Positions 1-12,048 of a DNA stretch of 12,048 nt are shown here, one piece after another. Each line of letters opens with the position of its first letter. The stretch's first letter is position 1. The stretch lies in the NCBI GenBank assembly GCA_046861645.1, contig JBHHUM010000063.1, positions 1 through 12,048 of the forward strand, given 5' to 3'. The position numbers and the translations under genes are program-made. The notes beneath the pieces are model-generated. The model did no database searches. It was not told the origin of the DNA and saw nothing but the letters and a program-made list of their open reading frames with translations. The stretch comes from Fidelibacterota bacterium (lineage in GTDB: Bacteria > Fidelibacterota > Marinisomatia > Marinisomatales > UBA2128).

Positions 1-1560
1 GCCTATAGTAAACCTGCCAATATGCTTTATAACCTGAAAGGTTATTTAGGCGAGGAGAGATTTCTGAAGGCTATGCAGGCTTATTATGACCAGTGGAAAC
101 TGAAACATCCCAATGAAGAACGTTTCCGCTTTGTCATGGAGAAGGTCACTGATGAGGAACTGGATTGGTTTTTTAACTCTTGGCTTCATGAAAAGGGGTT
201 TGCCGATTATACCCTTTCAGGATGGGACAGAAAGCAATTGTCTAATGGGGAATATGAAGTGACAGCTACAATTATTAACAAGGGTACCATGGAATATCCC
301 TTGGATGTAGAGGTTGAGTTGGCAAATGGTAAAAAGTATCGTCCAGAGAGGTGGACAAATTTTATTAACAATTGGAAAGACAACTACACATTTACAGTAC
401 CCAGTAAACCCAAAAGAATCACACTTGACCCCGATGATTGGATTCTGGATATTGATCGAAGAGATAATTCTTCTGGTTTATTACGGCACAAATTATCCTT
501 ACAATTAAATCCAGCATTTAATAGTCCACGTGATGCCTATAAAGTGACAATATTTCCCTCGCTAATATGGTATCACCCTTTGGATGGTTGGAAACCCGGA
601 CTAATGTTAAATAGAGCTTATGGTTTCTGGACCCACCAGACTTTAAATCTAAGCTATGGTATCAAGTCACAGCGCATTTTCTGGTCATTTGGTTCCTCTC
701 ATGACTTGCGTAATATCTTGCCAGGAGTGAACCTGAGCTGGGGCATTTCAGAACTGGAAGGAGTAAAGAGCAGAGAAATTCAAATTGACCATTTCTGGAG
801 TAAGTGGTACCATTATCCTCCTACGTTCAGCTTTTCTGGTGGTTACCAGGTGACAACTGCTGACGGATCAAATTATACCGACCTCTACGAGGCTGGAACA
901 GTAGGATTGCTTTTTGGAAATGTAGGTCTTTCGGTAAAAGTAGGATATTTTAATAGCGAAATTAACATTGCTATCTCGTCCTCGGGAGGCAGCATTAGTG
1001 ATTGGGATTTTTCCAGGTTAATTATATCGGGGAAATTCAGTACCAGTAAGGATAAGGTACACCTGGCATTTAGGTTCATGGGAGGGGGTACAGCAGTAGG
1101 TAGTGAGGGGTTACCGATTCAAGAGAAATTCACCATTCAATCAGCAGGAGCTGCTGATTATTATCACTGGTCTCATTTACGGCATAGGGACATCCTTTCT
1201 GGTTTGCGGGATCATTTTCACATCTACGGTGATGCCAATCTCCGAGGCTATTATGCCCATGGATATGAAGGAGCAGAGTCGGTGATCGTCTCCACTCTGG
1301 AGGCTGGTTATCAACTATTTTCATCTCTAAAAGTGAGAAGCTTTTTTGATGGGGGATGGCTCTGGAGTGTAGCAGATAACTTCGAAGGTGATTTGCTGAT
1401 GGATGCTGGAGTTGGATTTAGTTTTAAACCTGATTTCAATTTCTATGGTTATAGTATCAGTTTGAGGATTGACTTTCCTTTTTGGATAAGTGAAGAGACA
1501 GCAGACCAATCAGAAGTAGATTTCAACCGTTGGTTAATTAGTTTCCAAAAAGGATTGTAG
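1..1560 (+). CDS. 5'-truncated M1-family zinc aminopeptidase (C-terminal part) fused to an Omp85/BamA-like outer-membrane beta-barrel
   Basis: Frame is open from base 1 (AYSKPANMLYNLKGYLGEERFLKAMQAYYDQWKLKHP), matching the M1 'YxK(G/P)..L..L...G...F..A...Y...W..KHP' segment with the catalytic Tyr. It is followed by 'LDWFFNSW' and an Ig-like domain ending 'LDPDDWILDIDRRDN'. The C-terminal ~350 aa are amphipathic beta-strands with Omp85 hallmarks LRGY (1240-1251), FFDGG (1342-1356), DAGVGF and LRIDFPF. The HExxH motif would lie upstream of the window; the ATG at 22 is internal. Confidence 0.8.
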   Translation, partial: AYSKPANMLYNLKGYLGEERFLKAMQAYYDQWKLKHPNEERFRFVMEKVTDEELDWFFNSWLHEKGFADYTLSGWDRKQLSNGEYEVTATIINKGTMEYPLDVEVELANGKKYRPERWTNFINNWKDNYTFTVPSKPKRITLDPDDWILDIDRRDNSSGLLRHKLSLQLNPAFNSPRDAYKVTIFPSLIWYHPLDGWKPGLMLNRAYGFWTHQTLNLSYGIKSQRIFWSFGSSHDLRNILPGVNLSWGISELEGVKSREIQIDHFWSKWYHYPPTFSFSGGYQVTTADGSNYTDLYEAGTVGLLFGNVGLSVKVGYFNSEINIAISSSGGSISDWDFSRLIISGKFSTSKDKVHLAFRFMGGGTAVGSEGLPIQEKFTIQSAGAADYYHWSHLRHRDILSGLRDHFHIYGDANLRGYYAHGYEGAESVIVSTLEAGYQLFSSLKVRSFFDGGWLWSVADNFEGDLLMDAGVGFSFKPDFNFYGYSISLRIDFPFWISEETADQSEVDFNRWLISFQKGL

Positions 1561-1980: not shown

Positions 1981-1986
1981 TTGAAA

Positions 1987-3111
1987 ATGATAATAAAAAA
2001 CTACTCAATCATTTTATTTGTGATACTGTTTATTTTTGGATGCGAAGATAATGTACAGGAGTCAGGGGAAATCTATAAGGTTTATGTTGCTTACCAGAGT
2101 TCTGACAGGGTCGCAGTTTTTAATGGTGAAACAGGTGAGCCGATAAGGGAAGTGGATGTTGATATCACTCCTAATGTAGCAGATAATCCCCATTATATTG
2201 TCATTGATGAAGTACATAAGGTATGGTTCGTCACGTTAATTTCTTCCGGTTATGTGCTCAAGTACGACCTGTTAACAGATAATTTATTAGATTCTGTATT
2301 TGTTGGGAATCAACCGGCACTTATGGAGATTGATCCTGAAGGGAAATATCTGTATGTATCCCGTTTCATGCCCATGATGGGTATAGGAACAGCTTCTACA
2401 TTTGTACATCGCATAGATTTGGAAACCATGGATATCGACAGTGTAAATGTTGGTGCTGCTTCGCCTCATGGAATTGCTCTCAACAATGATGGAAGTGAGC
2501 TTTGGGTGGCGAGTAATCAGGCGTCTCATTTCTTCAGGATCGAAACTGAAAGATTCACTGAATCGGGCTATGAACCAGTGAGTTACAAGATTGGCAGTGA
2601 TGTTCCTGATGCTATTGGAATTAATGATGGCATATACGAAGCACTGGAACTTGTGATTTCACCCGATGGTGAAAAATTATTCATGAGTTGTTCTGACATT
2701 GGAGTAAATCAAATTCGAGTTTTTTCAACTACCACTGGTGATTCGTTGGGTGCCTATTCGCTGGGGATGATGGGGATGCAACCTTGGCATCTAATAACTG
2801 ATCCTGTGGGAGACTATGTTTATGTAGCCTGTCGTATGGCAAACGATATAGCTGTAATTAATTTGGGCTCTGATACGGGTCAAATCACTTTCATCGAGGA
2901 TGACCTAATGGATACTCCTCATGGCATTGGGGTTTCATCGAAAGGTGATCGTCTATTTGTTACTGGAAGTGCAATGATGAGTGGTAGTAAAAGCTATCTC
3001 CATATCATCGATACGGAAACCAATTTAGTCATCGAAAATGTCTTTTTGGGTGAGGGAGTAATAGCCACAGGATTAGCAGTAATGCAAACTACTTGTAATG
3101 GTTGTGATTGA
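1987..3111 (+). CDS. YVTN/YncE-family beta-propeller lipoprotein, His/Met-rich, with C-terminal CxxC
   Basis: Signal peptide with lipobox-like IFG-C (MIIKNYSIILFVILFIFGC). About 7 blades with repeats such as PHYIVID..VWFVT, PALMEIDPEGKYLYVS, PHGIALNNDGSELWVAS, LELVISPDGEKLFMS, PWHLITDPVGDYVYVA and PHGIGVSSKGDRLFVT. Ends TTCNGCD. 374 aa from ATG 1987. Confidence 0.85.
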   Translation: MIIKNYSIILFVILFIFGCEDNVQESGEIYKVYVAYQSSDRVAVFNGETGEPIREVDVDITPNVADNPHYIVIDEVHKVWFVTLISSGYVLKYDLLTDNLLDSVFVGNQPALMEIDPEGKYLYVSRFMPMMGIGTASTFVHRIDLETMDIDSVNVGAASPHGIALNNDGSELWVASNQASHFFRIETERFTESGYEPVSYKIGSDVPDAIGINDGIYEALELVISPDGEKLFMSCSDIGVNQIRVFSTTTGDSLGAYSLGMMGMQPWHLITDPVGDYVYVACRMANDIAVINLGSDTGQITFIEDDLMDTPHGIGVSSKGDRLFVTGSAMMSGSKSYLHIIDTETNLVIENVFLGEGVIATGLAVMQTTCNGCD

Positions 3112-3126: not shown

Positions 3127-4434
3127 ATGAAATGGAGATATTTTGAGTTGATATTTGCTTTCTTTGCACTGGGAATTTTTTCCTGTAGTAGTGAAGGAAA
3201 TGGTGAGAAAGCACTCGAGGTGCCTTCTCCACAGGAAACTATCAATTTAACTGACTTCAAAGAAGCGGTATCATGTAAGCCCTGTCATCCGGTACAATAT
3301 GAAGAATGGCAATATTCAATGCACGCCTATTCAATGAAAGACCCTGTTTTTCATTCTGGTTGGGAAGGGGAGAAAACTCACCGCCCTGATACTGGAGAAC
3401 GCTTTTGTATTCAGTGTCACAGTCCATATGCTTATGTTACTGGAAGTGAAGTTGACACTACAGTTGCCCAGATAGCCGAAGGCATAGGGTGCGATCTTTG
3501 CCATACAATGGTCGCATCTCATGATCAAATCATTACTGATGACAATGTAGCTGCTTCGGCTGAATACTTCCTAAATGCTGAAAAGGATATCAGGTTTGGT
3601 GAAATCATGGATCCAGTAGATAACGGATTTCACGAGAGTGTGGGAATCGCTTTTTTCAACTCTTCCCGGGCTTGTCTGCCCTGTCACGATTTTATTATCC
3701 GTGGTGTGGATGCTGAGATCACGTTTTCTGAGTGGGCCGGGTCTGGTTTCGCCGCTATGTCAATGGAATGTCAATCCTGCCATATGCAGGAATATGAGGG
3801 CTATGCAGCAGATCCGATAGCAAATCCTGGAGTTCCCAAAAGAATTATTCATGACCATAGTATGGTGGGAGTTGATCTTGACCTTAAAAAATCATTGGCT
3901 GACAATCCTCAGGGGGAAGCGGTGGTTGACCTCCTGCAGTCCGCTGCTGTTCTGGACTTAACAGATTCTCCTACGATTGTTAATGATACCCTTCAACTTT
4001 CTTTTACGATTCAGAATTTGACAGGACACAGTTTTCCTACAGGTGTCTCTTTCGTAAGGGAGTTGTGGATGGAACTGCAGGTTTATGATGAGTCCCAAGT
4101 ATACTTTTCATCGGGTATATTGGAGACGGATTCCAGCGATCTGGGAGAAGAAGTCGAAATTTTTAATGCGGAATTGTTTGATGGACAGGGCATAGCTGGT
4201 GTTGGAGTTACAGATGTAGTTTCCATGACCAATAACTCGCTGCAAGCTAATGAAGCCAGGGTGAAAACATTCTCCACTCCAATCACATCAGCTACAGATT
4301 CTATAACAGTTGCAGCTCGCTTACTTTTCCGATCATTTCCTCCTTCATCTCTGAGAGAGCAACATCAGGATTTACTGGCAAATTTACCAGTCATTACCAT
4401 TGATAGTCTCTCTTTCTCAATCGCTATACCCTGA
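3127..4434 (+). CDS. Multiheme (5x CxxCH) c-type cytochrome lipoprotein, cytochrome c554/c552-like, with C-terminal beta-sandwich
   Basis: Lipobox-like IFS-C. Heme motifs CKPCH (3274-3288), CIQCH (3406-3420), CDLCH (3490-3504), CLPCH (3673-3687) and CQSCH (3769-3783). Family-typical 'QYEEWQYSMHA', 'TFSEW..S', 'HDHSMVG' and 'N.TGHSFPTG...RELW'. Confidence 0.9.
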   Translation: MKWRYFELIFAFFALGIFSCSSEGNGEKALEVPSPQETINLTDFKEAVSCKPCHPVQYEEWQYSMHAYSMKDPVFHSGWEGEKTHRPDTGERFCIQCHSPYAYVTGSEVDTTVAQIAEGIGCDLCHTMVASHDQIITDDNVAASAEYFLNAEKDIRFGEIMDPVDNGFHESVGIAFFNSSRACLPCHDFIIRGVDAEITFSEWAGSGFAAMSMECQSCHMQEYEGYAADPIANPGVPKRIIHDHSMVGVDLDLKKSLADNPQGEAVVDLLQSAAVLDLTDSPTIVNDTLQLSFTIQNLTGHSFPTGVSFVRELWMELQVYDESQVYFSSGILETDSSDLGEEVEIFNAELFDGQGIAGVGVTDVVSMTNNSLQANEARVKTFSTPITSATDSITVAARLLFRSFPPSSLREQHQDLLANLPVITIDSLSFSIAIP

Positions 4435-4460: not shown

Positions 4461-6554
4461 TTGGTGGCCGATACCCAGTTGAGAAAGATATCCGATCTGA
4501 TATTTAGAGTTCTTTTCCTTTCCTCAATACTTCTTCCACAGTCCTTCCAAAGAGAAGTTAACCCTTTCCCTGTCATCATTGAAGATGACGAATTGAAAGT
4601 CCCCTTTTTAGGTGGCTTCAATAAACCAGCTCCACAATTTCTCGATTGGAATGGAGATGGGTTGGTGGATATGTTTGTACGGGATGTGGATGGTCGAATT
4701 CAATATTTCTCGAACGTTGGATCTCTTCAGCACCCTGAGTTTGAATTACAGACAAAGTCTTTTCAGGATCTTTATGTTGGTCATTGGTTTCATTTCTTTG
4801 ATTATGATCACGATGGTGATATTGACCTTATGGCTGGTCCACAAAGCCCTGATGTGTCTCTGTTTGAGAATATAGGAGATAGCTTAATACAAGTTGTAGC
4901 ACATTTGATAGATGATAACTCTGTAGCTGTCTATGGGGGACAGATAGTGATCCCCACTGTAGCCGACATTGACGGAGATGGATGGGAAGATTTTTTTGTT
5001 GGAGGTATATCAGGCTCTGTTACTTATTATCGAAATACAGGATTAACCGATGGGGTGCCGGTTTATCATTTAGAGACAAACTCATTTGAGGATATCCTTA
5101 TTGTGTGGGTGCCGGGTAGATATTCTCGTCATGGAGCCAATGCCTTGGAGTTCTACGATATTGATCAAGATGTTGATCTTGATCTTTTCTGGGGTGATTA
5201 TTATCAACCTGGACTTTTTTTCCTGGAGAACTTCGGTACTCCTAATGATCCGGAAATACCTGATAGTCTTATGGTTGATACCTATCCACCATCAGATCCC
5301 GTAAATAGTGCTGGTTTTAATGTACCCCGTTTGGTAGATCTTAATAACGATGGAGAAGCAGAACTCTTTGTGGGCGTCCAGTCTGGAGCTTATGGTACCG
5401 ATTATAAAGATAATTTCTGGTATTATGAGCCGTTAGGATCAGGAGATTTTGATCTGGTAACCAAGAATTATTTTGCGACTATAGATTTTATTTCCAGTAC
5501 CAATCCAACTTTAGCAGATATTGACGCTGATGGTGATTTTGATCTTTTTGTCGGTAATGAGTTTGATGATTCTAATCCAGGCTGGAACGGTGATATCTAT
5601 TTCTTTGAAAATACTGGTACACCCTTTGATCCACGTTTTGTTTTAGTAGACAGTACTTTTTTTGAGGAAGGTTTGGGAAATAATATGGCACCTGCTTTTG
5701 GAGATTTGGATGCTGATGGTGATCTGGATGCTCTGGTGGGAGATTACAATGGTGAGATTTCCTTTTACCTGAATGAGGGTCAACCTGATTTGCCTAACTT
5801 CAGTTATCAGGGGAAATTCCTGGAAATTGACTTGGCCGGGCGAGCTTCCCCTACCTTAGGAGATATAGATGGCAACGGCACTCTCGAACTTTTTGTGGGG
5901 GATAAGAATGGTACTGTGCATGTATGGCATAATGAAGGTGATCCGATAAACTATAACTTTGTGAAGATAAGTGACGATTTATTTGAAGGAGAAAACTTAG
6001 GATTGGAGATTTCCCTTGAGTTATCAGATTTCGACTTTGATGGAGAATTAGATTTGCTCATTGGGAATAAAGAAGGCGAAATCTATTTAGCCGATCCTTC
6101 AGGAGGAGAATTCCATAAGTTTGAGAAGTTCCCCCATTCTGGTCTGAACCTATCGATGACGTCAGGAGATGTGAATGGGGATGGATTGATGGATTTGATC
6201 GTTGGGTCTAATGAAGGAGGTTTACAGTTCTTTAGTGTGGGAGAAGAATCATCAATCGACAGTGAACCTTTGCCATCAAATCCCTCTCTGGTCGTTTGTT
6301 ATCCCAATCCATTTAACAGTAATACCATTTTTCGTTTCTCTGCAGATATTCCTGTTAACTCTAAATTAGTTATTTATGACCTTCTTGGTCGAAGGGTAGA
6401 GCAAATGAACATCCCAGATTTCAGAAACAACTCAATTCAAGTAGTATGGGAAACGAGTGAATTAGCTTCGGGGCAATATATCTGGCAGTTAATAAAAATT
6501 ACTGGAGCAAGTAAGCTGACATTGGATAGTGGTAAGCTGATGCTCCTGAAGTGA
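4461..6554 (+). CDS. FG-GAP/VCBS-repeat Ca2+-binding secreted protein with T9SS type-A-like (Por secretion tail/FlgD Ig) C-terminal domain
   Basis: Ten DxDxDGxxDL-type motifs (DWNGDGLVD, DYDHDGDID, DIDGDGWED, DIDQDVDLD, DLNNDGEAE, DIDADGDFD, DLDADGDLD, DIDGNGTLE, DFDFDGELD, DVNGDGLMD). N-terminal hydrophobic signal and C-terminal 'YPNPFNS...IYDLLGR...LASGQY...KLMLLK' (~6300-6554). The start is uncertain (TTG 4461, GTG 4464 or TTG 4479). Confidence 0.85.
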   Translation: MVADTQLRKISDLIFRVLFLSSILLPQSFQREVNPFPVIIEDDELKVPFLGGFNKPAPQFLDWNGDGLVDMFVRDVDGRIQYFSNVGSLQHPEFELQTKSFQDLYVGHWFHFFDYDHDGDIDLMAGPQSPDVSLFENIGDSLIQVVAHLIDDNSVAVYGGQIVIPTVADIDGDGWEDFFVGGISGSVTYYRNTGLTDGVPVYHLETNSFEDILIVWVPGRYSRHGANALEFYDIDQDVDLDLFWGDYYQPGLFFLENFGTPNDPEIPDSLMVDTYPPSDPVNSAGFNVPRLVDLNNDGEAELFVGVQSGAYGTDYKDNFWYYEPLGSGDFDLVTKNYFATIDFISSTNPTLADIDADGDFDLFVGNEFDDSNPGWNGDIYFFENTGTPFDPRFVLVDSTFFEEGLGNNMAPAFGDLDADGDLDALVGDYNGEISFYLNEGQPDLPNFSYQGKFLEIDLAGRASPTLGDIDGNGTLELFVGDKNGTVHVWHNEGDPINYNFVKISDDLFEGENLGLEISLELSDFDFDGELDLLIGNKEGEIYLADPSGGEFHKFEKFPHSGLNLSMTSGDVNGDGLMDLIVGSNEGGLQFFSVGEESSIDSEPLPSNPSLVVCYPNPFNSNTIFRFSADIPVNSKLVIYDLLGRRVEQMNIPDFRNNSIQVVWETSELASGQYIWQLIKITGASKLTLDSGKLMLLK

Positions 6555-6572: not shown

Positions 6573-6701
6573 CGTCACAAATAAATCCAAGCTGTTATCA
6601 TATTATTGGAGAGGAAATTTAGTAAAAAAAGCTTAAGTTTGGCGACTATTGAAAAACTCCATTCATTTAGATTAAAATTAAACTTCATGGAAGTTAGAGA
6701 A

Positions 6702-9700
6702 ATGAAACGACTACTTACTATTAGTTCGGTATTGATTTTTGGCGTAACAACTTTATTTGCCAAGGAGTGGGAAGTAGCATCATCTTCTGGGGTGGAGCAA
6801 TTGACTATTGATCTTTTAGGCTCTACTATCAATCATAGTGAACTTAGTTTCAGATTGGATGGATTTTATACTGACTTTATCGACATTGATGGGCAAAATT
6901 ATGTCGTAGTTACTCATCCTGATGCTCCAGGATTCCTGTTGGAGGGATTTCCCGGACTTCCCCGGGTCAACCGCAGCCTTATTATTCCAGATATAGGAGC
7001 AATAGAGGTAACAGTTACATCTATAGTCTATAAGGAATATAAATTAGGTCCTGTTGCACCCTCAAAAGGGAATCTATTGAGAACACAGAATCCTGAGGAT
7101 ATTCCCTACGTTTTTAATGAATATTATCAGACAGATAATTGGTTTCCTGCTGAAAACGTGACCCTAAGTGAGCCATTTATTTTCCGGGGAGTGCGAGGTG
7201 TTAACGTACAATTTCAACCCTTCCAATACAATCCCTCGTCTCAAACCCTCCGAGTAGCAATGGAAATGACCATTTCTCTTGATGCTATTCCTGGAGAAGC
7301 TCCCAACTCAATTCATAGGCAAAATAGAATTCCATCTAACCGAGATTTCGTCAGAATACAAAAGGATTTCTTCGCCAACTTTGAAGAAACTCAAGATATT
7401 TACTACGAAGGAATAGAAGAACCAGGTTATTTAGTGATTATTACTTTTGATGATTTCATTGATGCAATTCAGCCCCTGGCAGAGTGGAAGCTTCAGAAGG
7501 GCATACCTACCGAAGTTGTACCCCTGAGTTCCATTGGCAGCACTACAAGTGATATATTATCTTTTCTGCAAACCAGGTATGATACTGGTGAATTGACCTA
7601 TGTGATACTGGTGGGAGATGATGCTCAGATTCCTACTCTTTATGGTTCTACTGGAGCTGGTTCTGATCCTTCTTACGTCATGCTGGATGGTAGCGATTAT
7701 TATCCTGATGCCTTCATTTCGCGGATTTCTGCTACTACCGAGAGCGAAGTCGCTGATCAGGTAGCTAAGTTTTTGGCGTACGAAATAGATCCTCCAGGTT
7801 CGGTCTGGTTCAGCCGAGGATTGGGTGTCGCTAGTGCCGAAGGAAGTAGTATCCCACCTGATTATCTGGCTGATTGGGAACGGGCTGAACTACTCAGGGA
7901 TATGCTAATGAACTATACCTATTCAGATGTGGATCAGATCTATGATCCAGGTGCATCCCTCAGTGAACTGGTATCTGCCCTGAATGAGGGACGCTCAATT
8001 TTCAACTATATTGGGCATGGAGCAGGCACCTATTGGGGCACAACAGGTTTCAGTAACAGCCATGCTTCCTCTCTGAATAATGGTTTCATGATGCCCTTTG
8101 TAATCGATGTATCTTGCCTGAATGGACAGTGGCACGGTACGACCTGTTTAGCCGAGGCTTTCATGCGTAATCCTGAGGGAGGAGCAGTGGGAATGTTTTC
8201 CTCTTCAGTTAGTTGTTCTTGGGTACCTCCTACAGTTATGCAGTATCATATTGTTGAACTTCTGACTACAGAACAGCGCAATACCATGGGTGGTTTGAGT
8301 ATGCACGGGTCCATTCATACACTGGAATCTTATAACGGTGGTTCTGAAGGTATTGCTATTGTTGAGGAATACATACTTTTTGGTGATTGTACACTTCCCA
8401 TGAGGACGGTCAGTCCCATCACCGTAACCGCTTCACATGATCCTATTATTCCCTTGGGCTCTACATCTTTTTCAGTCCTAACAATACCGGGTGCTATGGT
8501 TGGTTTGACAATGGATGGAATCCTTTATGGAACGGCCATTGCCGGTGCTGATGGTATCGCCAACGTGGAATTTGAAGAAGCTCTTTCCGTCCCAGGAGCT
8601 ATAACGGTTACCGTTACTGCCTACAATTTTCTACCCTACATTACTGAAGTAAATGTCATTCAACCGGAAGGACCTTATGTAGCATTTGACTCCTATACGA
8701 TCTATGATATTAACGGCAATTTCGATGGTACAGTAGATTTTGGCGAAACTGTGGATATGTTCTTAAGTGTGACTAATGTTGGGGTGGAAGAAGCTTTCAA
8801 TGTGACCGGAATTATAACCTCTGAAGATCCACTGGTTACTATGATTGACGGTGATGTGACCTTTGGAAATATTGCTTCCGATGAGACAGTGACCAGTCAG
8901 GACGAGTTGATTATTATTGTGTCAGAAGAGACTGAGGATGGTCACATTATTCCATTTAGCATAGTTATCAATGGTACAGATAGTAATGGAAGTGAACTGC
9001 AGTGGGAATCTAATTTCAGTGTTACCGTTGAGGCTCCGGTTTTGGGTTTTGTAAGCTACAGTTTAGAAGGAACAGGTGAAAATGGAGTATTCGATCCGGG
9101 CGAGACTGTACAATTAGTGGTGACCCTATCCAACGAAGGTGCAGAAGATGCTACCAGTGTCATGGCAGAAATAGCAGAGAGTTCCAGTTATATTACGGTT
9201 GATGATAATCAAACTTACTTTGCTACAGTGACTGCTGGCGGGTCGGTGTCTAATAGTTCCAACCCTTTTACTGTGACAGCATCTACCAATACTCCTCTGG
9301 GGACAGAAATAGAATTTACTCTGACTGTTACCGCTCAAAATAATTACACCATTGTAGAGACATTTTCACTGATTGTGGGGCAAAATCAATTCTTCAGCGA
9401 AGATGTTCCTCTGGATTTTGGCCCTAACAACATAGAAAGTATTCTCAACATCCCAGTCTCATTTTTAATCAGTGATATTAATGTTATGGTGGATATCACT
9501 CATCCTTGGGTAGGTGATATTCAGTTACGACTCCGGTCTCCAGCAGGTACGGAAGTAGCATTGGTCACCAATCAAGGAGGATCTGGTGATAATTTCACTG
9601 AAACCGTATTTGATGATGATGCAGAAACCCCCATTGATAGTGGTACACCTCCTTATAATGGTAGTTTCCAACCAGAAGAACCTTTGGCGAATTTTAATAG

Positions 9701-10589
9701 TGAGGAATCACTTGGTAGTTGGACCCTTATCGTAATTGATACTTATCCTTCTCTGGATGATGGCACATTAAATGCCTGGAGTCTTACCATCAGCGGTGAA
9801 AGTTCTTCGCCCTGTGAAAAAGGAGATGTCAATTCGGATGGTTTTATAGATGTCTTTGATGTTATTAAAACAGTGAATATTATTCTTGGAATTGATACCG
9901 AACCTACAGAGGATGAGATATGTGCTGCCGATTATGATGACGATGGCTCGGTTGATGTTTTCGATGTCGTCAAAATGGTAAATTATATCCTTGGCATAGG
10001 CCAGACAAAGATGACCGCTCCGGCTACTTCAGCGGTTCTGATCCAGAGTGGTGAGACAATTTCTCTTAGCGCCAATGGGCCAGTTGCGGCTTTACAATTC
10101 TCTATCGAGACCGAAAGTGAGATTATTCCCCTGACAATTGAAGGTTTGGAAATCTTATACAACCGTATCAGTGAAACTACCGTCGAGGTATTGATCTTCA
10201 GTATGGATGGTACTACTTTGGAAAAAGATAAGTTACTGACGGTTAAAGGCAATTATTCCCTGAGAGATATTCAGGTATCCAACCTTAAAGGGGAAAAAGT
10301 TGCTGCTGAGATCCGGATTGTTCCGGAAGAATTTGTTTTGTTTCAGAACTACCCAAACCCTTTTAATCCGATTACTACCATTTCTTACGATTTACCTGAG
10401 GAAGGGTATGTTAGACTGGTGATCTACGATATTCTCGGCCAGGAAATAGTAAACTTAGTAGATGAAGAGCAATCTGCGGGCAGTTATCAGGTACGCTGGG
10501 AACCTGATAATATTGCCAGTGGCATTTACATTTACAGGTTGATTGCTGCTGGTACAAGTCGGACAGCACGCATGATCTTGTTGAAATAG
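6702..10589 (+). CDS. C25-family (gingipain-like) cysteine peptidase: signal peptide, C25 propeptide, C25 catalytic domain, C25 Ig-like domain, 2x CARDB-like Ig repeats, proprotein-convertase P-domain, dockerin, T9SS type-A-like CTD
   Basis: ATG 6702 gives a classic signal peptide (MKRLLTISSVLIFGVTTLFA). Propeptide motifs G.PGLP, APSKG..LR, FIFRGVRG and PFQYNP. Catalytic FNYIGHG (His 8016-8018) and DVSCLNG (Cys 8115-8117), plus YVILVGD, SDPSY, CLAEAFMR and LFGD. P-domain 'VDITHPWVGDIQLRLRSPAGT...WTLIVID...LNAWSLTI' (~9402-9797), dockerin 9822-9995, CTD 'LFQNYPNPFNPITTISYDLP...IYDILGQ...SGIYIY...MILLK' (~10323-10589). 1295 aa. Confidence 0.92.
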   Translation: MKRLLTISSVLIFGVTTLFAKEWEVASSSGVEQLTIDLLGSTINHSELSFRLDGFYTDFIDIDGQNYVVVTHPDAPGFLLEGFPGLPRVNRSLIIPDIGAIEVTVTSIVYKEYKLGPVAPSKGNLLRTQNPEDIPYVFNEYYQTDNWFPAENVTLSEPFIFRGVRGVNVQFQPFQYNPSSQTLRVAMEMTISLDAIPGEAPNSIHRQNRIPSNRDFVRIQKDFFANFEETQDIYYEGIEEPGYLVIITFDDFIDAIQPLAEWKLQKGIPTEVVPLSSIGSTTSDILSFLQTRYDTGELTYVILVGDDAQIPTLYGSTGAGSDPSYVMLDGSDYYPDAFISRISATTESEVADQVAKFLAYEIDPPGSVWFSRGLGVASAEGSSIPPDYLADWERAELLRDMLMNYTYSDVDQIYDPGASLSELVSALNEGRSIFNYIGHGAGTYWGTTGFSNSHASSLNNGFMMPFVIDVSCLNGQWHGTTCLAEAFMRNPEGGAVGMFSSSVSCSWVPPTVMQYHIVELLTTEQRNTMGGLSMHGSIHTLESYNGGSEGIAIVEEYILFGDCTLPMRTVSPITVTASHDPIIPLGSTSFSVLTIPGAMVGLTMDGILYGTAIAGADGIANVEFEEALSVPGAITVTVTAYNFLPYITEVNVIQPEGPYVAFDSYTIYDINGNFDGTVDFGETVDMFLSVTNVGVEEAFNVTGIITSEDPLVTMIDGDVTFGNIASDETVTSQDELIIIVSEETEDGHIIPFSIVINGTDSNGSELQWESNFSVTVEAPVLGFVSYSLEGTGENGVFDPGETVQLVVTLSNEGAEDATSVMAEIAESSSYITVDDNQTYFATVTAGGSVSNSSNPFTVTASTNTPLGTEIEFTLTVTAQNNYTIVETFSLIVGQNQFFSEDVPLDFGPNNIESILNIPVSFLISDINVMVDITHPWVGDIQLRLRSPAGTEVALVTNQGGSGDNFTETVFDDDAETPIDSGTPPYNGSFQPEEPLANFNSEESLGSWTLIVIDTYPSLDDGTLNAWSLTISGESSSPCEKGDVNSDGFIDVFDVIKTVNIILGIDTEPTEDEICAADYDDDGSVDVFDVVKMVNYILGIGQTKMTAPATSAVLIQSGETISLSANGPVAALQFSIETESEIIPLTIEGLEILYNRISETTVEVLIFSMDGTTLEKDKLLTVKGNYSLRDIQVSNLKGEKVAAEIRIVPEEFVLFQNYPNPFNPITTISYDLPEEGYVRLVIYDILGQEIVNLVDEEQSAGSYQVRWEPDNIASGIYIYRLIAAGTSRTARMILLK
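8673..9380 (+). repeat. Two tandem ~115-120 aa Ig-like (CARDB-like) protein repeats within the C25 gene
   Basis: 'PYVAFDSYTI...DGTVDFGETVDMFLSVTNVGVEEAFNV...' (8673-9032) versus 'PVLGFVSYSL...NGVFDPGETVQLVVTLSNEGAEDATSV...' (9036-9380). Confidence 0.75.
9822..9995 (+). repeat. Type I dockerin duplicated Ca-binding segments within the C25 gene
   Basis: GDVNSDGFIDVFDVIKTVNIILG and ADYDDDGSVDVFDVVKMVNYILG. The duplication is also visible at nucleotide level. Confidence 0.85.
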
Positions 10590-10713
10590 TGTGATTGAGC
10601 GCAAGGATTTATATGAAATGCTTAAAACCTCGTTGTTTTAACGACTTCGGTGAGTAAATTTGATTTGATGATTTATCTTTGGAACCTCAATTCAGTAGGT
10701 ATTAACAGTTAGT

Positions 10714-10724
10714 AAGGAGGAGGT
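10714..10724 (+). promoter_or_regulatory. Strong Shine-Dalgarno site (AAGGAGGAGGT) for the ATG at 10728
   Basis: GGAGG at 10716-10720 is 7 nt from ATG 10728. Confidence 0.8.
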
Positions 10725-10727
10725 AAA

Positions 10728-12048
10728 ATGTCACGTACACTGACAAGAATAGTTGCTGCAATCTTTATATTAAGCTTCACCTCTATATCCTCAGGTCAAG
10801 CTTTATGTCCCCCATCGAATCTAGTTGCTGGTGGCGGAGATGGAGAGGTTTTACTCTCTTGGACTGAGCCTAACTTTGAAGGAGGAAGTGGCGAGTGGGA
10901 GATTCTTGCCGAATTAATGGCCAATGCTGATTGGGACTCTGCATCCATCGACTTGAGTTCTTATACTGGTTCGATCATACAATTAGCCTTTCACTATAAT
11001 GATGGTGGTTCTTGGGCTGATGGTTCAGGAGTCGATGATGTAGTCATTAATGGCGATAGCAGCTCAATCGTATCAGCAAATTTTGATGATGGACAGCTGC
11101 CTGCAGATTGGTCAATAGAAACTCCTGGAGTGGGCTGGGAATTCGCTGATGCCACTTATTTTAACAGCAATGGAGCTAATTTCATTACCTTTCCAGAACA
11201 TGGCATCTTTGCCGGAAATGATGACGATGGTAATGGATCGAGTAATATAGCTGATGATTATCTCATTACCTCCTCAATTGATTTAAGCAGTGTGAGTTCC
11301 GCCAATATTGAATTTCTTTACTGGCACTCTGGTCAGTATGGTGGCGTCCTCACTCTTGAGGTTCGAGTTATTGAAGCAGCCGATTGTGGGACGTTCTCTC
11401 ACTATATTGTCTATCGCGATAGCTTGGAACTTGATACCACTTCGGATGCCACTTATATTGATGCGAGTGTCACTAATGGTACCGAGTATTGCTACATGGT
11501 ATCTGCTCAATACACAGAGGGTGAGTCATCCCCTACTGATGAAGCTTGTGCCACGCCAGCAGAGATGTATGTGGCGACACTTCCTATCAGTGAAGATTTT
11601 GAAGGTGCTCTCGGTGAAGGATGGGGCCAGGAAGTTTCTGAAGGAGCCCCTGCAGAATGGTCTTTTGGTATCAATAGCGCTATACCTCCAGGTGATGGCA
11701 ACTATGCCTGGATTAATGACGATGAAGTGGGTTCAGGTACTCCGGGTTATATCGCTACCCTGCACACTCCCTTTTTCGATGCTGATAGTGGTATTATTAT
11801 TCTTTCCTTCGACTACATATTTAATGAGTTAGGGGATTTCTTTGATCTCGTCTACCGGCTGCCCGGTGGCGACTGGCAGGAGTTAATGCCCCTTACAGAA
11901 GTACTCAGTTGGACATCTTTGACGGTAGATTTAACTGCTGACATTGGTGGCATGAGCGCTGTACAAATTGGCTTTCAATATGATGATGCTTCCTCGTGGG
12001 CCTGGTGGCTTGGTGTTGATAACGTTGCTGTGAATTCCATGACAGAGG
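10728..12048 (+). CDS. 3'-truncated secreted adhesin-like protein with Fn3 and cleaved-adhesin/MAM-like (choice-of-anchor J-like) domains
   Basis: Translated by hand; it is absent from the ORF track, presumably because there is no stop in the window. 440 open codons: MSRTLTRIVAAIFILSFTSISSG-QALCPPSNLVAGGGDGEVLLSWTEP...IDLSSYTGSIIQLAFHY...VDDVVI...NFDDGQLPADW...YLITSSIDLS...YIVYRDS...TYIDASVTNGTEYCYMVSAQYTEGESSP...LPISEDFE...VQIGFQYDD..WAWWLGVDNVAV. Has a signal peptide and a strong RBS. Confidence 0.9.
   Translation, partial: MSRTLTRIVAAIFILSFTSISSGQALCPPSNLVAGGGDGEVLLSWTEPNFEGGSGEWEILAELMANADWDSASIDLSSYTGSIIQLAFHYNDGGSWADGSGVDDVVINGDSSSIVSANFDDGQLPADWSIETPGVGWEFADATYFNSNGANFITFPEHGIFAGNDDDGNGSSNIADDYLITSSIDLSSVSSANIEFLYWHSGQYGGVLTLEVRVIEAADCGTFSHYIVYRDSLELDTTSDATYIDASVTNGTEYCYMVSAQYTEGESSPTDEACATPAEMYVATLPISEDFEGALGEGWGQEVSEGAPAEWSFGINSAIPPGDGNYAWINDDEVGSGTPGYIATLHTPFFDADSGIIILSFDYIFNELGDFFDLVYRLPGGDWQELMPLTEVLSWTSLTVDLTADIGGMSAVQIGFQYDDASSWAWWLGVDNVAVNSMTE

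Follow-up and report, generated by a model that had tools for sequence, protein, structure and literature searches.

A Probable Natural Circular Permutant of a Choice-of-Anchor J/MAM-Like Domain, Nested in a Split FN3 Domain of a Bacterial Surface Protein

RESULTS

Domain organization of the host protein

The stretch of DNA analyzed in this study, referred to as the window, comprises 12,048 nucleotides and corresponds to the entire contig JBHHUM010000063.1 (C36) of the metagenome-assembled genome of a Fidelibacterota bacterium (G000, assembly GCA_046861645.1; 184 contigs, 94% complete). An open reading frame (ORF) on its forward strand, at positions 10728 to 12047, encodes the first 440 residues of a multidomain secreted surface protein of this uncultured vent bacterium and is open at its 3' end, where the contig stops. 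The full-length form of the protein, P0153, is 1151 amino acids (aa) in length, derives from a contig of 14358 bases, and is 100% identical across the query region. A preliminary description of the sequence had claimed that this ORF contains two copies of a cleaved-adhesin/MAM-like domain, one of canonical order (copy 2) and, ahead of it, one with its halves swapped (copy 1). The coordinates and sequence strings given there were all correct. We consider it very likely that residues 53 to 213 represent a true and functional circularly permuted form of the choice-of-anchor J/MAM-like beta jelly-roll, nested in an FN3 domain; this reading is supported by profile matches, by conservation and selection, and by structure prediction.

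All features of the ORF are located on the forward strand. Strands A-B of the FN3 host, at positions 10803 to 10883 (residues 26 to 52), are followed by the first piece of the permuted domain, which is equivalent to the C-terminal part of a canonical domain (positions 10884 to 11051, residues 53 to 108), by the linker GDSSSIV (positions 11052 to 11072, residues 109 to 115), and by the second piece, equivalent to the canonical N-terminal part (positions 11073 to 11366, residues 116 to 213). The FN3 domain resumes with strands C-G at positions 11376 to 11564 (residues 217 to 279), and copy 2, a choice-of-anchor J/MAM-like domain of canonical order, occupies positions 11580 to 12035 (residues 285 to 436). 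Read along the chain, copy 1 would present the last third of a canonical domain, then a 7-residue linker joining the ancestral C and N termini, and finally the first two thirds.

Profile matches of the two pieces of copy 1

In a two-sequence BLASTP comparison, the C-half of copy 1 (residues 56 to 109, positions 10893 to 11051) matched the end of copy 2 with 21 identities over 55 positions (38%; E value of 5e-10). The same half corresponds to positions 114 to 162 of the 162 positions of the NCBIfam model NF038128 (choice_anch_J). Self-BLASTP of the whole protein returned nothing other than the trivial self match. Since the N-half gave neither a significant pairwise match nor a curated-model match, an independent hidden Markov model (HMM) of the canonical domain was built. 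Canonical domains were collected by jackhmmer from copy 2 over 149 other proteins that had been obtained by a representative search. The resulting HMM of 159 positions is based on 26 full-length canonical domains from 8 unrelated proteins, with the window's protein excluded.

This model recognized both pieces of copy 1. Residues 53 to 108 matched HMM positions 104 to 159 with 46.8 bits and an independent E value (i-E) of 9.8e-16, and residues 116 to 213 matched positions 4 to 100 with 50.8 bits (i-E of 5.9e-17). Copy 2 matched positions 1 to 159 with 55.3 bits (i-E of 2.4e-18). The two pieces are complementary: they show no overlap, HMM positions 101 to 103 alone are missing, and the linker falls between the two matches. 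Swapping the halves in silico had the outcome that the preliminary description anticipated. When the pieces of copy 1 were reordered by script, a single match to HMM positions 4 to 159 was obtained with 109.1 bits. As a control, the halves of copy 2 were exchanged after a cut at the corresponding position, which yielded two matches. The N-half also matched the N-terminal parts of canonical domains in other genomes, such as the one at G009:C1:16215-16499 (E value of 1.3e-8).

Copy 1 is cut at a site equivalent to the LPGG hairpin turn of copy 2. The preliminary description had placed new termini in this hairpin; the site is right, but the termini are junctions with the FN3 host domain and not chain ends. 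Across the linker, the VDDV and NF(D/E) motifs lie, as judged by eye, at a similar distance from each other as in the tandem arrays of P0034, P0093, and P0098.

Family membership

Against a curated cutoff of 30 bits, NF038128 matched the whole protein with 59.9 bits, residues 50 to 220 alone with 36.7 bits summed across two stretches, and the copy 2 piece alone with 30.3 bits. A colinear match to the full profile was obtained for copy 2 (positions 2 to 162 of 162) but not for copy 1, in which the C-terminal part (positions 114 to 162) precedes the N-terminal part. Judged by its sequence, copy 1 would be classed as a choice-of-anchor J homologue of changed topology, not as a colinear member of the family. 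Colinear family models thereby underannotate permuted domains: NCBIfam and Pfam models see copy 1 only as a half-domain.

The relationship to solved MAM domains was evident for the canonical copies. A profile of six canonical sequences (alignment A4), which includes copy 2 and leaves copy 1 outside the comparison, matched the MAM domain of neuropilin-1 (10ri_E, E value of 7e-5; 5l73_A, E value of 1.6e-4), the MAM-like domain of InhA (4yu5_A, E value of 9e-5), and PTPRK (8a1f_A, E value of 4.6e-3). Of the label originally proposed, the MAM part consequently holds for the canonical copy, whereas the cleaved-adhesin part does not: Pfam Cleaved_Adhesin gave no match at an E value of 10 or less to either the whole protein or its pieces. 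InhA-like_MAM (PF20773), the sole Pfam match obtained with the whole ORF product and six pieces of it, reached 21.2 to 24.6 bits over residues 67 to 118 only, below its gathering threshold of 26.9. Searches of PDB sequences by phmmer with copy 1 and copy 2 remained at chance level (E values of 0.12 to 0.14), and the profile of alignment A3, which extends over 1684 positions owing to a full-length row, retrieved dockerins and calmodulins from the PDB.

Insertion into a split FN3 domain

For FN3, an HMM was constructed from 102 hit-list sequences; it matched residues 26 to 52 over positions 5 to 31 (13.3 bits, i-E of 2.2e-5) and residues 217 to 279 over positions 29 to 90 (78.2 bits, i-E of 1.2e-25). 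The two FN3 halves read CPPSNLVAGGGDGEVLLSWTEP ahead of the C-terminal part of copy 1 and GTFSHYIVYRD...EACATP after its N-terminal part, and the junctions of the permuted domain with these stubs read ...WTEPNFEGG before the insert and ADCGTFSHY... after it. An AlphaFold2 model of residues 25 to 284, referred to as the nested model, had a predicted local distance difference test score (pLDDT) of 79.2 and a predicted template modeling score (pTM) of 0.64, with pLDDT values of 87 to 94 for FN3 strands C-G. When this model was compared with solved structures using VIA, a sequential structural aligner, all 50 of the 50 rows listed were FN3 domains (Z scores of 10.8 to 12.4, 82 to 97 residues aligned). 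The best match aligned 85 residues with a Z score of 12.4 and a root mean square deviation of 1.7 Å over the model range 1..256, and across the 50 rows the model ranges started at residue 1 or 2 and ended between residues 253 and 260. The alignments span both FN3 pieces, and the pieces therefore rebuild a complete FN3 domain. Copy 1 is inserted whole into the BC loop of this split domain. Pfam fn3 showed no match to the 440 residues encoded in the window at an E value of 10 or less, and Foldseek returned multidomain matches of low TM score for the nested model.

We considered whether the motif NFEGG directly before the C-terminal part could be what is left of the first strand of a half-domain that has been lost. 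This was rejected, as P0064, a protein of 1120 aa that comes from another lineage and has the same architecture, carries SFEGG at this place before an unrelated insert.

Predicted fold of the permuted domain

Modeled alone with AlphaFold2, residues 49 to 219 formed one compact domain (pLDDT of 81.0, pTM of 0.81). The underlying alignment consisted of 7 rows, namely, the orthologues and three tandem-junction stretches. In this model, the linker bridges a hairpin made up of the ancestral last and first strands (E51-61 and E64-69). A further alignment, A2, composed of full-length tandem proteins, was poor across the N-terminal part.

Searching a set of 48161 chains with VIA, only two matches with a Z score of 8 or more were found for the domain model: the concanavalin A (ConA)-type lectin of Dioclea (2jdz_A; Z score of 8.5, 136 residues aligned, 3.2 Å) and the "circularly permuted" beta-glucanase CPA16M-127 (1ajo_B; Z score of 8.5, 135 residues aligned, 3.6 Å). 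This outcome, in which a sequential aligner ranks known permuted jelly-rolls of the ConA type ahead of MAM and adhesin domains, fits a permuted domain.

Conservation, selection, and distribution

Homologs of the same order, as suggested in the preliminary description, were found in all three other genomes of the genus. Each contains a colinear match to query residues 2 to 260 with 71 to 78% identity, and the translated orthologue ORFs retain the succession of FN3 strands A-B, C-terminal part, N-terminal part, FN3 strands C-G, and canonical copy. No colinear match was obtained in other families of the order (0/37 genomes). The ratio of nonsynonymous to synonymous substitution rates (dN/dS) of the permuted region was 0.061, 0.099, and 0.056 for the three species pairs with unsaturated dS; the three pairs containing the window's genome were saturated in this region and gave no ratio. 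For copy 2, values of 0.14 and 0.15 were obtained in two of the same pairs, with the pair G003-G002 being saturated. The permuted domain is under purifying selection.

The orthologues in G002 and G001 (L005 and L006; P0154 and P0155) are longer, with 1529 to 1684 aa, due to extra N-terminal modules. These contain a further split FN3 domain (CPPTDLSA...LSWTAP ... CGEFIEYIIYQDG) with an insert of about 180 residues. In the window's protein, unlike in these two, a hydrophobic leader lies directly ahead of the nested domain.

A collection of 5.8 billion proteins contained, as far as a word-based search extends, four 90%-identity clusters with the arrangement (P0153, P0003, P0154, and P0155). Such a search with the nested domain returned 914 candidates, of which the four orthologue clusters alone qualified; it has little power for distant permutants. 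Among the best 150 of 2414 matches in a representative library, P0003 was the only one colinear over the whole query. P0034, P0093, and P0098 were evaluated as further permutants and rejected, as their colinear matches are junctions of tandem canonical domains. P0042 also yielded a colinear-looking alignment, but its J domains are nonadjacent. None of the 19 of 149 match proteins that bear the domain contained a permuted one, and no swapped pair other than that of this ORF was detected in the window's genome. NF038128 was matched in 46 of 121 genomes of the class, and among the matches listed, the G003 orthologue was the only one to show a C-terminal part followed by an N-terminal part.

Alternative explanations for the swapped order

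Several results weigh against a permuted domain. The preliminary description had implied that both halves resemble copy 2. While this was seen in the pairwise comparison of the C-half, the N-half (residues 115 to 214) gave no significant pairwise match (best BLASTP E value of 0.98) although by the HMM it is clearly homologous to the N-terminal part of the family; on its own, it was matched by no Pfam or NCBIfam model. The alignments behind the two structure models were shallow (7 and 10 rows), and the loops at residues 1 to 4 and 119 to 124 of the domain model had a pLDDT below 50. Its best VIA Z score of 8.5 is borderline, as values of 7 to 8 are typical of models that lack a clear match, and Foldseek found no match to the PDB at an E value of 0.001 or less. 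No MAM or gingipain adhesin chain was among the top 50 rows that VIA returned for the domain model; this would be expected of a sequential aligner confronted with a permutant and equally of a wrong model, and it excludes nothing. One further test spoke for the permutant, but with a weak pass: when the halves were submitted to ESMFold2 as two separate chains, they were placed together with a score of 0.59, compared with 0.00 for the best of three controls, which was graded as "weak support." Of 78 solved complexes, 51 attain the mark applied here, as do 2 of 108 mismatched pairs; with a score of 0.60 or less, it was attained by only 5 of the 78 solved complexes and by all four passing mismatches (of 180). 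Contact agreement between the two-chain runs was at least 97%, with a partner pLDDT of at least 76. Through likeness to solved folds, the halves of a single domain may pass such a test.

We considered whether the pieces could be decayed remnants of a tandem pair, i.e., the end of one domain followed by the start of its neighbor, forming a spacer within the FN3 loop that is not a domain at all. Tandem-array junctions that resemble copy 1 are indeed common, and the low model confidence in loops of the N-terminal part would suit a degenerate segment. Against this, the pieces together make up precisely one domain (HMM positions 104 to 159 plus 4 to 100, free of overlap and loss), either of them scores on par with the whole of copy 2 on the canonical HMM, the dN/dS of 0.06 to 0.10 indicates a constraint equal to or greater than that on copy 2, and a single compact fold is predicted with a pTM of 0.81. 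We regard decay as highly improbable. A three-dimensional domain swap, in which the C-terminal part of one chain completes the N-terminal part of another and the protein oligomerizes at the cell surface, appears just as improbable. It would agree with the placement of the separate halves in the two-chain run, in which intra- and interchain closure are indistinguishable. The 7-residue linker, however, is modeled as a simple hairpin, so that closure within one chain is sterically easy, and there was no sign of oligomers.

An error of assembly, or a chimeric metagenome-assembled genome, at a repeated domain was also evaluated, as the contig stops 10 bases past copy 2 and close to a fork. At this fork, the contig C107, which continues the gene, shares 39 bases with the contig end (positions 12010 to 12048). 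The fork is, however, situated away from positions 10890, 11055, and 11370, at which the preliminary description had proposed a check of the assembly, and no joints were found there. Four of the four per-run assemblies (Logan contigs) span positions 10500 to 12048 in one contig with 0 or 1 differences; these runs come from one sample, possibly the source, and are not independent of the assembly. Moreover, the same order is present in three other species at 71 to 78% identity, and the protein was recovered full length as P0153 from the 14358-base contig. The swapped order is not an assembly error, and this explanation can be considered effectively refuted. The fork just after copy 2 possibly reflects a strain variant; within positions 1 to 122 of G000:C107, the first 83 bases are unrelated in sequence and interrupt the frame of the gene with stop codons. 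A single per-run difference was noted at window position 11252, within the permuted N-terminal part, where the X4 contig has G versus T at a depth of 12 and 255 bases from its end.

Comparators and origin of the permuted domain

Split FN3 domains are a recurrent feature of related proteins: 23 of them were identified in 8 of 149 proteins, with inserts of 67 to 213 residues. J domains of canonical order are located in split FN3 domains of L007, L010, L012, and L013 from related genomes and of P0134 (twice) and P0076 (once). These canonical nested J/MAM domains share with copy 1 common residues and motifs, the BC loop of an FN3 host, and a multidomain T9SS (type IX secretion system) protein. They differ in that the order of the parts is swapped in copy 1, which connects to FN3 by its hairpin (HMM positions 100/104), whereas they connect by their first and last strands. 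A third split FN3 domain lies upstream in the G001 and G002 orthologues. A second one is present in P0153 itself, at residues ~529 to 557 and 780 to 853, encoded in C107 beyond the window. Its insert of ~220 residues belongs to no Pfam family, and the equivalent region of P0064 aligns poorly; this second nest looks variable too.

The comparison with P0064 was informative with respect to the origin of copy 1. It aligns with P0153 up to FEGG (22 of 35 residues identical) and again from (A/S)DCGTF to the C terminus (384/957, 40%). In between, residues 139 to 241 of P0064 form an unrelated insert of 103 residues, without a Pfam match at an E value of 0.01 or less, where P0153 carries the permuted domain of 164 residues. 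In a FastTree tree, the support values of which were unexamined, copy 2 grouped with the J domain of P0064, and the permuted domain was placed elsewhere, near tandem-array domains. By these sequence comparisons, i.e., 38% identity of the C-terminal part and nonsister positions in an unsupported tree, copy 1 is not a recent duplicate of copy 2. Of the origin by tandem duplication and trimming that was proposed initially, duplication and trimming as such are possible, but a recent duplication of copy 2 disagrees with the identity and the tree.

The presence of a different insert at the same boundaries in P0064 makes it more plausible that an insert was captured or replaced at an insertion site than that a domain was simply duplicated and its ends trimmed. 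Out-of-register capture is most likely the origin of the permutant, as we infer it. A domain-length piece of a tandem array, composed of the C-terminal part of one unit and the N-terminal part of the next, would have been captured; junctions colinear to copy 1 exist in the tandem arrays of P0034, P0093, and P0098. By entering an existing FN3 insertion site, or replacing the insert there, such a piece could have given rise to a viable permutant in one step. Alternatively, a domain may have been duplicated in place and then trimmed on both sides. A tandem-J cluster of the type found in G119 could donate an out-of-register unit. In that complete genome of the order, most of the 27 NF038128 matches are located at ~1533000 to 1581000 of G119:C1, in a 50-kb cluster of tandem-J genes.

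It is conceivable, although rather doubtful at present, that the FN3 BC loop of T9SS surface proteins serves as a general docking site for cassette exchange and that the permutant arose by one-step copying of an out-of-register unit. If true, nature would have a one-step route to a viable permutant that avoids broken intermediates, and a binding domain would have been remounted on its stalk via a different edge. By analogy with its canonical relatives, the permuted domain may act as a ligand-binding module for a glycan or a protein, as can be inferred from family membership only. The altered mounting might also turn its binding face, as the preliminary description suggested.

DISCUSSION

Relation to known permutants and significance

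Circular permutation of ConA-like jelly-rolls is a classic phenomenon, exemplified by concanavalin A and favin and by circularly permuted (1-3,1-4)-beta-glucanases. A ConA-type lectin (2jdz_A) and CPA16M-127 (1AJO) were the top two sequential structural matches of our domain model. ConA is reportedly permuted after translation, and CPA16M-127 was engineered according to its entry title, whereas the permutation of copy 1 is encoded in the gene and the domain is nested. Copy 1 shares no recognizable sequence similarity with these matches (10% identity). A passage of one report, which also cites the 1979 paper of Cunningham, attributes ~20% of CPDB pairs to concanavalin-like folds (PMC13552848).

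The preliminary description stated that a permutant of this kind had not been described, which was too strong. In 2022, SeqCP reported the choice-of-anchor J protein UPI00057E200D as a circular permutant of 3m1hA ("lysine-specific cysteine protease"), cut at residue 71 (PMC9763678). This protein and copy 1 have a common family label, in both the C-terminal-equivalent part comes first (~70 versus ~56 to 62 residues), and the cuts are close. As in our study, the case was based on sequence comparison and AlphaFold2 only. The section describing it (section 3.6.1 of PMC9763678) mentions neither an FN3 host nor a canonical copy within one chain, and neither conservation nor selection. Copy 1 is linked to 3m1hA solely via this case of another protein. 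Besides SeqCP, no report of a permuted choice-of-anchor J domain was found in the open-access literature searched, and a full-text search of that literature did not turn up any J/MAM domain described as nested in FN3. The novelty is thus modest: the phenomenon is known, from jelly-roll permutation in general and the SeqCP precedent, and it is for the nested form that no published description was found.

The locus nevertheless represents a well-controlled natural example, in which the permutant can be compared with a canonical copy in the same chain, nested canonical relatives in sister lineages, the insert of P0064, and possible donor arrays. The origin of the permutant, by out-of-register capture into an insertion site or by duplication and trimming, is therefore testable. 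For protein engineering, it may offer, by analogy, a natural design of a permuted binding-type domain grafted in an FN3 loop.

Remaining modules and neighboring genes

Pfam matches of P0153 comprise CarboxypepD_reg (residues 442 to 520), Dockerin_1 (residues 856 to 907), and FlgD_ig. A match to Por_Secre_tail at residues 1068 to 1148 was below the threshold (21.6 bits versus a cutoff of 27). From these modules, we read the protein as a large multidomain surface or secreted protein, presumably exported by the T9SS with the aid of a C-terminal T9SS sorting domain.

The gene directly upstream (positions 6606 to 10589, forward strand) encodes a Peptidase_C25 (gingipain-family) protease, as indicated by Pfam and NCBIfam matches. 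Its modules include a C25 propeptide, a C-terminal Ig-like domain, a proprotein-convertase P-domain, a dockerin, and a T9SS tail. In the gingipain/HagA adhesin regions of Porphyromonas, a C25 protease is combined with cleaved-adhesin domains. The locus resembles this arrangement in that a T9SS-tailed C25 protease lies directly upstream of a protein with MAM-like jelly-rolls and a subthreshold T9SS tail. It differs in that protease and adhesin-like modules are encoded by separate genes and Pfam Cleaved_Adhesin is not matched.

The other genes of the window are on the forward strand as well and encode the C-terminal part of an M1 peptidase (positions 1 to 1560), a lactonase-type beta-propeller (positions 1981 to 3111), a multihaem cytochrome c of the Cytochrome_C554/NapC-NirT type (positions 3127 to 4434), and an FG-GAP repeat protein (positions 4461 to 6554) with a subthreshold match to a T9SS tail (24.4 bits versus a cutoff of 27).

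Dockerin modules are present on the products of both adjoining genes, the C25 protease and the MAM-like multidomain protein. The sole cohesin-like match in the genome was detected at G000:C67:9624-9899 (24.9 bits versus a cutoff of 24.1). The product of the corresponding ORF on C67 may be a partner of the dockerins in both proteins of the window; the ORF encodes 1229 aa and also bears a J domain of canonical order.

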